Shown piece after piece: positions 14,006-57,573 of a stretch of 64,000 bases of DNA. Source of the DNA: Candidatus Aminicenantes bacterium (GTDB taxonomy: Bacteria; Acidobacteriota; Aminicenantia; Aminicenantales; Aminicenantaceae); contig JAWLEN010000002.1 in the NCBI GenBank assembly GCA_041686095.1, positions 8,143-72,142 on the forward strand, given 5' to 3'. The notes under the pieces were generated by a model. The model worked only from the letters and a program-made list of their open reading frames with translations. It searched no databases and was not told the origin of the DNA. A program made the translations under genes and the position numbers. Positions within the stretch are counted from its first letter, which is position 1. Each line of letters starts with the position of its first letter.

Positions 14006-14052
14006 TTTTATAATGAAAACATCGCCATTTTTTTATGAATAGTTCAGGTTAA
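14006..14052 (+). repeat. AT-rich intergenic repeat, partial copy (ATCGCCATTTTTTTATGAATAGTTCAGGTTAA)
   Basis: TTTTATAATGAAAACATCGCCATTTTTTTATGAATAGTTCAGGTTAA matches the inner ~45 nt of the 108-bp copies at 31138 and 35748 with a few substitutions. Confidence 0.8.
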
Positions 14053-20160: not shown

Positions 20161-20183
20161 TATGTATGCATTTTTATACAATA

Positions 20184-20276
20184 CTGTGATACATATGAAG
20201 TATTATATTTATTAAGAGGAGAGGGCAGGGGATGAGGAATCCCCTGTGAGGGCGGAGCGGGCATGGTTCCTCTTTA
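20184..20276 (+). repeat. GC-rich structured repeat, truncated copy C (leader + first ~60 nt of core)
   Basis: CTGTGATACATATGAAGTATTATATTTATTAAGAGGAGAGGGCAGGGGATGAGGAATCCCCTGTGAGGGCGGAGCGGGCATGGTTCCTCTTTA matches copy B positions 57327-57420 with 5 hand-counted mismatches. It ends where the full copies continue GAGGGGAGCG. Confidence 0.85.
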
Positions 20277-31139: not shown

Positions 31140-31245
31140 CAGGAAAATAGTTCCAATCGTCATTTTTGAAAAAAACCTTGTATATCGCTGAAAATAAATT
31201 GATAATAAAAACATCGCCATTTTTTTATGAATAGGTCAGGTTAAT
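31138..31245 (+). repeat. AT-rich 108-bp repeat, left copy of an inverted pair
   Basis: AACAGGAAAATAGTTCCAATCGTCATTTTTGAAAAAAACCTTGTATATCGCTGAAAATAAATTGATAATAAAAACATCGCCATTTTTTTATGAATAGGTCAGGTTAAT. It differs from the reverse complement of 35748-35854 by one A indel and one substitution (hand alignment). Confidence 0.9.
31178..31206 (+). promoter_or_regulatory. promoter-like sequence inside the repeat, facing the histidine kinase gene
   Basis: TTGTAT (31178-31183), 17 nt, GATAAT (31201-31206), about 80 nt upstream of ATG 31285. Confidence 0.35.
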
Positions 31246-35747: not shown

Positions 35748-35854
35748 ATTAACCTGACCTATTCATAAAAAAATGGCGATGTTTTTATTATCAATTTATT
35801 TTCAGCGATATACAATGTTTTTTCAAAAATGACGATTGGAACTATTTTCCTGTT
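35748..35854 (-). repeat. AT-rich repeat, right copy of the inverted pair (107 bp)
   Basis: Its reverse complement is identical to 31138-31245 except A6 vs A7 and CA vs CC in ...TTTTTGAAAAAA(A)C(A/C)TTGTAT... Confidence 0.9.
35787..35815 (-). promoter_or_regulatory. promoter-like sequence inside the repeat, facing the CYTH gene
   Basis: Minus strand TTGTAT (35815-35810), 17 nt, GATAAT (35792-35787), about 50 nt upstream of ATG 35736. Confidence 0.35.
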
Positions 35855-53496: not shown

Positions 53497-53572
53497 ATTG
53501 TTTTGACCTTTGCGTTTCAATTTAATTTATTTTTTTATCTTGAAAATTTGAAGGTATGGCTGAAGCGATATT

Positions 53573-53764
53573 AAAGGAAGCCTTTCCAAAACCGTGATAC
53601 ATGTGAAGTATAATGTTTAATAAGGGGAGAGGGCGAGGGATGAGGAATCCCCTGTGAGGGCGGAGCGGGCAGGGTTCCTCTTTAGAGGGGAGCGAAGCCC
53701 GAACCGGGAGGGAGATTCCACGCTGGGGAATCGAGCGGGTGACGAATCCCTTGCCCTTCCCCTT
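53573..53764 (+). repeat. GC-rich structured repeat, full copy A (candidate multi-copy ncRNA)
   Basis: ~50-nt AT-rich leader (...CCAAAACCGTGATACATGTGAAGTATAATGTTTAATAA) and a 139-nt GC-rich core (53624-53762). About 95% identical to 57308-57499 by hand count. The core ends GGGGAGAGGGCGAGGGAT / ATCCCTTGCCCTTCCCC pair over 17 bp with one bulged A. Confidence 0.85.
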
Positions 53765-53870
53765 CAAAAATCTGAAGGGAGCACAAGCCAAATCTGATTT
53801 TCAAATCCTTTTCTTGCAGAGCGTTTGGTTTGAGTCTATCATATATAATCTGATGGAATGAGGAGGCCGG

Positions 53871-54680: not shown

Positions 54681-56326
54681 AAAATGATTCTCAAAGGATT
54701 GAGATGATGAAAGAAATATCAGACAAAAAAGCAGATCTCATTCTTAAAAATGGTCGATTTTGGACTGTTGATCCAGCCCATCCAAATGCTGAGGCAGTGG
54801 CTGTTCACAAAGGCCGGATTCTGGAAATTGGCTCCTGGGGACAAGTCAAACATTTTACGGATCAAAAAACCCAGTTCATTGATTTGGAGGGAGCTTTTGT
54901 GCTTCCTGGCTTTACTGACAGTCATACTCATTTTTTGGAGGGCGGGCTCAGTCTTTCTTCCATTAACTTAAGGAATGTTAGCAGCAAAGAAGAGTTTGTA
55001 AAAAAGATAAAGAAAGAAGCTGATGAGTTGGGAAAAAGAACATGGATAACAGGCGGAGAGTGGGATCATCAACAGTTTGATTCAAAACAGCTGCCAAAAA
55101 AAGAGTGGATTGATGGGATCACTCCAGAAAATCCAGTTTGTGTGAGCCGGAAAGATATGCACATGGTCTTTGCAAATAGCCTGGCATTAAAATTAGCTGG
55201 GATCAGCAAGCACACCTCTGATCCAGAAGGGGGTGAAGTAATGAAAGATCCTAAAACAGGAGAGCCCACTGGAGTACTGACAGATGCTGCTGTGGATTTG
55301 GTTCTGAAAAAGATTCCAGAGCCAGGATCTGAAGAAAAGATCAGGGCAGCCAAGAAAGCAATCGAGTTCGCCCATAAAAAAGGAGTGACATCTGTCCATG
55401 AAATGGGGCCCATCCATAATCTGGAGGTCTACGAAGAGCTTTATAAGCGACAGGAATTGGATCTTCGCATCTGTCTGTATCCGCCTATTTCTATCATAGA
55501 TCATTGGCCTGAATCTCAATTAAAAAGGAAGGAGAAGAAGAATTTTTACAAGATGGGAGGACTGAAAGGATTTGTGGATGGTTCATTGGGCTCATCCACG
55601 GCCTTGTTTTTTGAACCCTACACAGATAATGCAGACAAGAAAGGCCTATTGGCATCGGATATGTTTCCTGAAGGAAAAATGGAGGAGAGAATCCAGAAGG
55701 CGGATAAGGAGGGTCTCCAGGTGGCTGTTCATGCCATTGGTAATAAAGCCAACCACATCATTTTAAACATATTTGAAAATGTAATGAAATCAGGTCAAAA
55801 AAGAGACCGCAGATGGAGGATAGAGCATGCCCAGCACCTTATTTTTGAAGACATAGTTCGGATGGGAGAATTGGAGGTATTGGCTTCAGTCCAGCCATAT
55901 CATTTGATTGATGATGGGCAGTGGGCAGAGAAAAGAATTGGTTCATCCCGGGTTCGTTATTCCTATCCTTATAGATCCTTACTGGAGAACAAGGTTAAAC
56001 TGGTTTTTGGATCTGATTGGACTGTAGCCCCTCTAGATCCACTCTCAGGAATTTTTTCTGCTGTGACAAGAAGCACTTTGGACGGTAAAAACACTCAAGG
56101 ATGGGTGCCCGAAGAAAAAATTTCTGTTCTGGAAGCGCTTAAAGGATGCACTATAAATCCGGCTTTTGCTGAATTTTCTGAAAACATCAAAGGATCCCTA
56201 AAAAAAGGCAAGCTGGCAGACATGGTGGTGCTTAATAAAAACCTTTTGAATATAGATCCTTTTGAAATAAGGGATACCCAGATTTTAATGACCCTGTTTA
56301 ATGGAAGGATTGTGTATAAAAAATGA
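54677..56326 (+). CDS. amidohydrolase-family protein (YtcJ / amidohydrolase 3-like)
   Basis: LPGFTDSHTHFLEGG (HxH), AVHAIGNKA, EHAQH, FGSDWTVAP. 4-nt overlaps on both sides. Confidence 0.8.
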   Translation: MKNDSQRIEMMKEISDKKADLILKNGRFWTVDPAHPNAEAVAVHKGRILEIGSWGQVKHFTDQKTQFIDLEGAFVLPGFTDSHTHFLEGGLSLSSINLRNVSSKEEFVKKIKKEADELGKRTWITGGEWDHQQFDSKQLPKKEWIDGITPENPVCVSRKDMHMVFANSLALKLAGISKHTSDPEGGEVMKDPKTGEPTGVLTDAAVDLVLKKIPEPGSEEKIRAAKKAIEFAHKKGVTSVHEMGPIHNLEVYEELYKRQELDLRICLYPPISIIDHWPESQLKRKEKKNFYKMGGLKGFVDGSLGSSTALFFEPYTDNADKKGLLASDMFPEGKMEERIQKADKEGLQVAVHAIGNKANHIILNIFENVMKSGQKRDRRWRIEHAQHLIFEDIVRMGELEVLASVQPYHLIDDGQWAEKRIGSSRVRYSYPYRSLLENKVKLVFGSDWTVAPLDPLSGIFSAVTRSTLDGKNTQGWVPEEKISVLEALKGCTINPAFAEFSENIKGSLKKGKLADMVVLNKNLLNIDPFEIRDTQILMTLFNGRIVYKK

Positions 56327-57306
56327 TTTACCTATATTTTGCTGCTTTGGTGATATCCTTAATAGTGCTTTTTAAGTGCGCTGATTTTTTCATTGAAGGT
56401 TCTGTAGGCGTAGCTCATATTTTTAGCATACCTAAGTTAGTGGTGGGAATTGTTTTTATGGGACTTGCCACCACAGCGCCTGAGTTGGCGGTTTCGGTCC
56501 AGGCTGCATTTCTGGGGCATCCTGAAATATCTTTAGGAAATGCCATTGGCTCTGTTATAGCTGATGATGGAATTGCCATGGCTTTAGCAGGCATTGTGGC
56601 TTCTACGGCTATTATTGTCAACTGCCGTGTTCTGAGAATCATAGGCTTTTTTCTCCTGGGCGTTGATTTTTTTGCTTATTTATTAGTCATGAATGGAGAA
56701 GTAAGCCGTATCGAAGGAATGGCCTTATTAGGCCTTTTAGTTTTTTATTTTTTGCTCATTATTTTTATGCATAAGAGAAAAAAAGGATTCCTTCCTTCTT
56801 CTGAAGAACAGTTGGCCAAAGAGGAACATTATTCTGATGAGAACAGAAGCCGGAGGATTAGAAAATATATATTTTACTTTATAGGTGGAGTCATAGGAGT
56901 TGTGTTGACCAGCCGGGTTATTATATGGTCAGCTGTCCATATATCCCATTATTTTTCTATTTCAGAAACAGTAATTGGCCTTACTGTGATTGCTATTGGA
57001 ACCTCTCTTCCTGAAATCAGCACAGCCGTGACAGCTGCTGTAAAGGGGGAAGGAGATATTGCTATAGGCAATATATTAGGAGCAGATGTGTTGAATATAT
57101 TATGGATTATTGGGATGTCTGCAGTGGTCAGGCCTATTAATGTGGAAGTCGAAGTGATTCGATTCACCTTTCCCTATATGATACTTATCGTCACTGTTAT
57201 GCTGGTTTCTATGAGGATAGGGTGTCGGTTTGGAAGATTAAAAGGAATCATTCTTCTATTCTTCTATATCATTTATTTTATTTGGACTCTGAAATTTTTC
57301 CTTTAA
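56323..57306 (+). CDS. Ca2+/cation antiporter (CaCA, YrbG-like)
   Basis: Two alpha-repeat motifs, GNAIGSVIADDG and GNILGADVLNILW. About 10 TM helices. Confidence 0.8.
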   Translation: MIYLYFAALVISLIVLFKCADFFIEGSVGVAHIFSIPKLVVGIVFMGLATTAPELAVSVQAAFLGHPEISLGNAIGSVIADDGIAMALAGIVASTAIIVNCRVLRIIGFFLLGVDFFAYLLVMNGEVSRIEGMALLGLLVFYFLLIIFMHKRKKGFLPSSEEQLAKEEHYSDENRSRRIRKYIFYFIGGVIGVVLTSRVIIWSAVHISHYFSISETVIGLTVIAIGTSLPEISTAVTAAVKGEGDIAIGNILGADVLNILWIIGMSAVVRPINVEVEVIRFTFPYMILIVTVMLVSMRIGCRFGRLKGIILLFFYIIYFIWTLKFFL

Positions 57307-57307
57307 G

Positions 57308-57499
57308 AAAGGAAGAATTCCCAAAACCGTGATACAGGTGAAGTATTATGTTTATTAAGGGGAGAGGGCAGGGGATGAGGAATCCCCTGTGAGGGCGGAG
57401 CGGGCATGGTTCCTCTTTAGAGGGGAGCGAAGCCCGAACCGGGAGAGAGATTCCACGCTGGGGAATCGAGCGGGTGACGAATCCCTTGCCCTTCCCCTT
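57308..57499 (+). repeat. GC-rich structured repeat, full copy B (candidate multi-copy ncRNA)
   Basis: Starts 2 nt after the antiporter stop. Core 57359-57497 (139 nt) differs from copy A at 4 positions. Same 17-bp closing helix. Confidence 0.85.
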
Positions 57500-57573
57500 A
57501 TATGTCAAATAAAATCTACCACGGTATTAGAAATGATTCCTTTAAGAATATTTTATTTGATAGAATAAAAAAA

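Follow-up and report, generated by a model that had tools for sequence, protein, structure and literature searches.

Several families of short, dispersed repeats in bacteria resemble in part the element described here. The Correia elements of Neisseria (CREE/NEMIS) are non-autonomous DNA transposons (MITEs) of 100-230 bp with terminal inverted repeats (TIRs), present in at least about a hundred copies per ~2-Mb genome; they insert beside genes, carry promoter-like boxes in their arms, and their transcripts fold into long hairpins. The ERIC/IRU sequences of Enterobacteriaceae and Vibrio are intergenic imperfect palindromes of ~130 nt, found in many copies and in either orientation, and their unusually good conservation across genera has been read as a sign of constraint on the RNA. 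BOX elements of Streptococcus pneumoniae and the BIME/RIME repeats are mosaics whose modules are recombined in both orientations. REP sequences are palindromes of 20-40 nt that flank their own RAYT gene and make no target duplication, and the corresponding REPINs form long-lived populations of hairpin repeats with strand-specific folding. Finally, HEARO (the IscB omega RNA), which is represented in Rfam, is a structured RNA-like motif with many copies and a link to mobile DNA.

Here we describe an element from Candidatus Aminicenantes, present in a stretch of 64,000 nucleotides (the window), that shares features with each of these systems. It is like the Correia elements in its MITE size, TIRs, copy number, gene-adjacent insertion and promoter-like arm boxes. 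Correia elements, however, duplicate TA on insertion, belong to one genus and have an interior without a conserved multi-branched fold, whereas here the target duplication is 9 bp and the interior is conserved order-wide, in shells with different termini. With ERIC/IRU it has in common many copies, either orientation and conservation across genera, but ERIC/IRU is one long hairpin without sequence similarity to the present module, which is a multi-helix junction with near-invariant loops, inside clear TIRs and 9-bp target duplications and with an empty site to compare. The use of one module with different flanking modules, in both orientations and with chimeras, recalls BOX and BIME/RIME; these have no sequence relation to the module, BOX modules are shorter, and no 9-bp target duplication or TIR shell is known for BOX. 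Long-lived hairpin-repeat populations with strand-specific folding are shared with REPINs, although here TIRs and target duplications are present and the RAYT-like genes of the genome keep company with other repeats. Unlike HEARO, the module has no Rfam match and no partner protein gene beside the copies examined, and its closing helix leaves no free guide segment.

Copy B is a complete 230-bp MITE on the plus strand of the window (57311-57540), composed of a left arm, a structured module and a right arm. It follows a CaCA-type antiporter gene (ORF 56323-57306) and precedes an ald-like gene. A previous sequence-only reading had placed it just after the antiporter stop, which is correct (TAA at 57304-57306), and had described a structured core with a leader; the core stands as described, but the unit is longer, having inverted termini and a target duplication. 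The left TIR, GGAAGAATTCCCAAAACCGTGATA (57311-57334, plus strand; family consensus GKAAGCMTTTCYAAAACCGTGATA), and the right TIR (57517-57540, minus strand, where it reads GGAATCATTTCTAATACCGTGGTA) were located by a TIR pattern search, in which the TIR-to-TIR span is 226 nt. Between them lie the AT-rich inner left arm with its -10-like box (57335-57358, plus strand), the structured module (57359-57497, plus strand; matched by our covariance model R1 over 57358-57500 with 121.7 bits) and the AT-rich inner right arm TTATATGTCAAATAAAATC (57498-57516, plus strand), which is conserved 3' of most full copies. The target duplication, TTTAAGAA(A/T), occurs as TTTAAGAAA at 57302-57310 and as TTTAAGAAT at 57541-57549, the two agreeing at 8/9 positions. 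Copy B stands right after the stop codon because the duplicated target contains the stop. In L031, the locus of a relative with a 98%-identical ald-like protein, the site is empty: it reads cctttaagaatat with the target in single copy (context ...tttttcctttaagaatatttta... / ...ctgaaatttttcctttaagaatattttatttgatag...), and sets the insertion boundaries to within about 1 nt. The element is also absent from this locus in relatives at 86-89% identity. Copy B is a recent transposition into 57310/57311, at the antiporter stop codon. The promoter-like site before the ald-like gene, TTGACT-16-TAAGAT, is not part of the element, and the empty site has it too.

The element belongs to a large family. A BLAST search against the genome assembly (2.68 Mb, 203 contigs, 40.6% GC, 91% complete) gave 146 matches, comprising 43 with leader and core, 55 with core only and 48 fragments, many of the last at contig ends. 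A core-only query found 98 near-complete cores, far from the two full copies and one fragment previously counted. The TIR pattern had 105 matches, among which were 35 inverted pairs 100-230 nt apart; 31 of these span about 215-233 bp, and the remaining 4 are short forms of about 127 bp without the module interior. Element sizes range from 126 to 233 bp and none holds a transposase gene. Direct repeats of 9 bp flank these 35 elements, perfect in 8, matching at 8/9 positions in 11 and at 7/9 in 5, so that 24 reach at least 7/9 identity, against a mean of 0.8 when left and right flanks were shuffled among elements. Mismatches affect about 10% of sites (21 of 216) even in the well-preserved duplications. 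With TIRs, a target duplication of fixed length, a precise empty site and a small size in many copies without a transposase, copy B is a non-autonomous DNA transposon, or MITE, of ~230 bp with 24-bp TIRs and a 9-bp target duplication. An autonomous parent insertion sequence would show as a transposase enclosed by a pair of TIRs; among pairs 300-6000 bp apart in this assembly (91% complete, 203 contigs) there was none. The only pair in that range, 362 bp apart on contig C60, is far too short for one, and unpaired TIRs run into further repeats or contig ends. About 100 copies, many of them at contig ends, fragment the assembly. Since copies occupy promoter-side intergenic DNA, they also matter for annotation and for the reading of regulatory regions in Aminicenantes.

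The short elements (for example C2:17212-17299, C143:14130-14256, C146:11651-11778 and C48:21418-21543) have the same termini and the arms of the closing helix P1, shut by a GAGG-type loop, but no module interior. A direct repeat, GAATCCC, borders the missing segment, and these elements may be deletion derivatives or unoccupied shells.

Two further copies lie in the window, both on the plus strand. Copy A (53573-53764; module 53624-53762, 117.7 bits with R1) has a left arm and module like those of copy B, while its right flank comes from another repeat family (..GGGAGCACAAGCC..). This makes it a chimera within an older shell, its left arm being of F1 and its right end of F2/F3 type, as defined below. 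Copy C (20165-20275) keeps the left arm and ~60 nt from the start of the module, and breaks off within the P3 hairpin. Set side by side, 53573-53764 and 57308-57499 show ten differences between copies A and B, six of them in the 51-nt AT-rich leader and four in the 139-nt GC-rich core, in agreement with the core count given before.

Comparison of divergent copies from other genera yielded the structure of the module, which has a closing helix and three inner helices (P1, P2/P2a, P3 and P4). P1 is a long closing helix of variable sequence, often with tandem G.A pairs; in copy B it joins 57360-57376 to 57481-57497. P2, which includes a tandem G.A, follows at 57379-57384 with 57473-57478, and P2a (57385-57386 with 57441-57442) is a helix of 2-3 bp that encloses P3. 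P3 itself is formed by a 4-bp stem, a large internal loop with GAGCGGGCAYGG on one side and AGCGA on the other, and a hairpin; its outer stem in copy B is 57394-57396 with 57432-57434, and its hairpin 57410-57416 with 57419-57425. P4 is a hairpin with the loop CUCGCUGGG. In copy B its top pairs 57449-57454 with 57462-57466 around the loop ACGCUGG, and its lower half is unpaired in the lineage of this genome. The P3 hairpin and P4 vary in sequence and length across families, while three near-invariant stretches, GAGCGGGCAYGG, GAGCGA and CUCGCUGGG, stay. In other genera this interior is kept and the closing helix is wholly replaced, for example GAAUGAUUCAGG... in one genus against GGGGAGAGGGCAAGGG... 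in the present genome. A pseudoknot between CUCGCU of the P4 loop and AGCGAG/AGCGAA was considered and rejected, as by inspection the observed variants do not co-vary.

Compensatory changes on one strand maintain the helices, and the covariation is strong. In an alignment of 72 sequences made from sequence only with MAFFT, 80.3% of cells can pair and both sides change at 37 of 47 pairs; none of 500 shuffles reaches these values, and the covariation score, 0.263, falls to 0.15 or less when the partners are slid. The alignment guided by R1 gives 88.8% of cells paired, double changes at 38 of 47 pairs and a covariation score of 0.341, compared with 0.122 in shuffles and 0.093 or less with slid partners, and again 0 of 500 shuffles reaches any measure; this alignment was fitted to the structure, which makes the MAFFT result the fairer test. 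The copies share ancestry, and the covariation and pair counts therefore overstate the number of independent events.

The closing helix had first drawn attention through a pair of adjacent substitutions between copies A and B, read as a swap that preserves pairing on the plus strand alone. The model-guided alignment confirms the pairs themselves: A57370-U57487 followed by G57371.U57486 in copy B, and G53635.U53752 followed by A53636-U53751 in copy A, with an identical 3' arm (CCCUUGCCC) opposite in both. It was the interpretation as one swap that did not hold. Most copies read GGGCAAGGG (CAAGGG) here, the family consensus, while B has GGGCAGGGG and A has GGGCGAGGG; what looked like a swap is therefore two independent A-to-G transitions, both of which leave a G.U pair and were tolerated for that reason. 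Among 90 distinct copies, the column 5' of the G-run (the one with copy B's G.U) shows A-U in 50, U-A in 15, U.G in 7, G.U in 2, U.U in 12 and A.A in 3, so that the closing helix also has unpaired states among genomic copies.

Evidence for the plus strand as the constrained one, as the sequence-only reading had proposed, comes from the whole family. Counted over 73 distinct sequences of several genera, the helices contain 210 G.U cells against 67 A.C cells, together with 187 G.A/A.G cells. Within this genome, G.U accounts for 92 minority states in 23 columns and A.C for 30 in 9 columns, 19 of the 30 in one column. Transitions away from the consensus in paired columns favour those that make G.U (C>T, A>G; 132) over those that make A.C (G>A, T>C; 79), and the ratio is reversed in unpaired columns (100 vs 151), which ties the bias to pairing and not to a general mutation bias. 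The direction of the asymmetry is consistent in every comparison, though the copies share ancestry and the events are not independent. In predicted folding the plus strand of the copy B module, at -78.3 kcal/mol (z = -5.5), is far more stable than the minus strand, at -58.4 kcal/mol (z = -2.6). Mismatches lean towards G.U and G.A, combinations that pair on the plus strand alone. Together with the common tandem G-A pairs, the excess of G.U supports single-stranded folding of the plus strand. G.T and G.A are also tolerated in single-stranded DNA, and the asymmetry is no proof of RNA.

The greater conservation of the core than of the leader, seen previously in two copies, extends across the genome. 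In 24 F1 composites nucleotide diversity is 0.174 in the TIRs, 0.15-0.165 in the inner arms and 0.036 in the module, which is about 4.5-fold less diverged than the arms around it. Judged by the ~10% of mismatched sites in even the well-preserved target duplications, the module also evolves more slowly than neutral flanks. Its low diversity could be due to selection on the fold, to gene conversion between modules or to a recent spread of the module into older shells. A conserved interior in variable transposon shells is the reverse of what is expected of a plain DNA transposon.

These shells are of at least two families. F1 shells have GKAAGCMTTTCYAAAACCGTGATA-type termini and hold the core in both orientations relative to their arms (30 one way, at least 5 the other), and F2/F3 shells have the termini GAAATTCAGGTGTGGCT... 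and ...GGAGCACAAGCC. Module haplotypes correlate with shell type and are nonetheless mixed, 12 of 47 F1 copies carrying the variant typical of F2/F3, which indicates recombination between copies. Such exchange, visible in chimeric shells and mixed haplotypes, would help to keep the copies alike. In a strain with 99% identity across the neighbouring 530 bp of coding DNA, the site orthologous to copy A is occupied by an F3-type shell that is inverted and holds a different cargo; a third cargo is found there in another species of the genus. More broadly, the intergenic region upstream of 53871 (53549-53575 and 53765-53803 in the window; loci L165-L168) holds an F3-type shell with termini GAAATTCAGGTGTGGCT in several species of the genus, with a different cargo in each.

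R1 finds the module in 96 of 151 sampled genomes of the order to which this genome belongs, one of uncultured Aminicenantes, spread over 7 of 9 families and usually in many copies, in a survey that scored only 20 candidates per genome. It was found in none of 150 genomes from the rest of the Acidobacteriota with the same model, under filtering that loses weak matches. Five single-contig genomes have 3 to 17 copies each, and the roughly 100 copies of the present genome are an expansion. At gathering thresholds, Rfam 15 returned only two tRNAs for the whole window; with E up to 10, the best match to the element was SIB_RNA, a non-significant 17 bits against a gathering score of 56 (E = 0.49), and divergent and long variants of the module gave no match. 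A literature search on Aminicenantes repeats, MITEs, non-coding RNA and the invariant strings found no relevant description. As far as could be found, the ~140-base module is undescribed. Six pattern matches in IMG/VR raised a link to phages, and none was confirmed by the covariance model.

We consider it somewhat better than an even bet that copy B is a recent MITE whose order-conserved folded module of ~140 nt would work as a folded single strand, most likely RNA, serving the element family or the host generally and not the adjacent genes. That RNA would come from read-through or from the -10-like box of the left arm, ~9 nt 5' of the module (TATTAT in copy B, TATAAT in most copies); among the other genera examined, no consistent promoter-like box was seen upstream of the module. 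Should the module act as RNA, this widespread lineage of sediments and the subsurface would have an abundant RNA family that annotation has missed, and the module would be a clear example of an RNA element that spreads by means of MITEs.

The strongest competitor is a palindromic MITE that acts at the DNA level only, its fold being a cruciform or single-stranded DNA hairpin used in replication or transposition (e.g. in joining the termini), or a by-product of the concerted evolution of inverted repeats. We regard this as possible, at well below an even chance. The classical TIRs, target duplications and empty site speak for it, the module occurs in either orientation with respect to genes and to its own arms, and recombination between copies is evidenced. 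It is also in keeping with the sigma-70 scan, which called no full promoter at the element or its inner left arm; the sole promoter-like match touching the element (57486-57515, 9/12) starts in the 3' arm of P1 and is directed away from the module. Nor was a terminator-like site called at copy A or copy B. Against it, a cut-and-paste element of DDE type depends on conserved termini and not on a conserved interior, and the diversities here run the other way (termini 0.17, interior 0.036). Across families P1 is wholly replaced while the three-way junction of the interior and the near-invariant loops persist, and symmetric or double-stranded processes do not predict G.U over A.C (210:67) or G.A over C.T. 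Furthermore, the folding strand is mostly antisense to the neighbouring genes; if genes mostly follow replication, it would lie on the leading-strand template, which would rarely be single-stranded.

Returning to the RNA reading, a narrower version of it can be put forward tentatively, and we think it rather doubtful. The interior of ~100 nt (P2-P4 with GAGCGGGCAYGG, GAGCGA and CUCGCUGGG) might be a new class of functional RNA, for instance a protein-binding RNA or a small ribozyme, that needs only some closing helix and persists in MITE shells of different transposon families, with selection acting on the RNA and not on the DNA transposon. An extended form of the module, ~310 nt in length, occurs in genomes of two different families (L054 in G009, about 1290-1610 on the minus strand; L147 in G226, 1495-1840). 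It carries a second conserved GC-rich segment within P4 (GAUUUGUG..CACAAAUC, GGGG.UUCCAA.GGGG...CCCUUUGGUCGCAG, GAGAAGGGGAGGCAGGGAG) and has no Rfam match; a second module in P4 would fit a larger, modular RNA.

That the family consists of stand-alone small-RNA genes or type I antitoxin-like RNAs, merely repetitive in appearance, seems unlikely. The -10-like box of most full copies and the non-significant resemblance to SIB_RNA point in this direction, but TIRs, target duplications and the empty site identify the spreading unit as a transposon, 55 of the 98 near-complete cores have no leader, and no terminator was called. Minus-strand open reading frames of 76 and 89 aa lie over copies A and B. 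A coding role was rejected for these, since they cross covarying helices of a dispersed, non-coding intergenic repeat whose indels are not multiples of three.

Very unlikely, in our view, is a locus-specific RNA at copy B, acting as a stabiliser of the antiporter 3'-UTR or as an insulator before the ald-like operon, the role suggested previously. Copy B does lie directly 3' of the stop, in sense, as a very stable structure closed by a hairpin. However, in L031 the empty site is intact and is followed by the same promoter-like boxes, the relatives at 86-89% identity also do without the element, and the target duplication containing the stop explains the position. The wider family tells the same story. 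All copies are intergenic. By crude ORF-based gene calls, 27 in this genome lie between divergent genes, 11 between convergent genes, and 19 and 10 between co-directional genes with the module antisense and sense, respectively; the corresponding numbers for AT-rich loci of relatives are 12, 2, 15 and 5. Pooled, antisense outnumbers sense by 34:15 (p about 0.01 by a normal approximation, the copies not being independent), and the sense-tandem arrangement of copy B is that of a minority (15/49). A 3'-UTR element should be sense and the module is mostly antisense, so a stabilising or terminating role is not supported, and the calls at copies A and B include no terminator-like site. The antisense bias would fit counter-selection of the folding strand inside operon transcripts: sense insertions between co-transcribed genes appear to be selected against, as a strongly folding plus-strand transcript would cause. 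This removes a false lead, the element being no regulator of the antiporter or ald-like genes.

The least probable reading, a REP/REPIN mobilised by a RAYT (Y1 HUH) protein, an IS200/IS605-type non-autonomous element (PATE) or a guide-RNA relic, could draw on one-strand folding, many copies and the two Y1_Tnp (RAYT-like) genes of the genome, but both genes are flanked by repeats other than the module (inverted AATTGGGGACGGTTTA; short tandem repeats), TIRs and 9-bp target duplications are present that HUH-mobilised elements lack, the TnpB domain PF07282 has no match in the genome, and the copies in five low-copy complete genomes adjoin mutually unrelated genes with no conserved neighbour (response regulator, TolC-like, BNR-repeat protein and FabD, named by eye from translations), which leaves the element outside both the REP/REPIN-RAYT and the IS200/IS605/TnpB/IscB groups.

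The two Y1 genes have repeats of their own. At C191:5057-5392 (L173, ORF 1177-1869 on the minus strand) a 230-aa Y1/HUH transposase-like gene lies within an inverted 16-nt repeat, AATTGGGGACGGTTTA / TAAACCGTCCCCAATT, and gene and repeat could together form a REP-RAYT pair of their own, with no relation to the module. At C46:6328-6633 (L174, ORF 1087-1845 on the minus strand) a 252-aa Y1-like gene has tandem GGAATTTTGCAGCTTGG on one side and tandem GATAAGCTGG-type units on the other.

Some minor observations concern other repeats and motifs. In the complete genome G027 (L140, L144, L157 and L163), several modules are preceded, ~25-30 nt beyond their 5' end, by a short copy of the near-invariant motif, (C)GAGCGGGC(A)(U)G, which may reflect partial duplication. 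The window holds another repeat family (TTTTTTTATGAATAG.TCAGGTTAA) at 14007-14052, 31199-31244 and 35759-35804. In a related genus (G014), a similar motif, TGAATGATTCAGG, replaces the GC-rich arms as the closing helix of the module.
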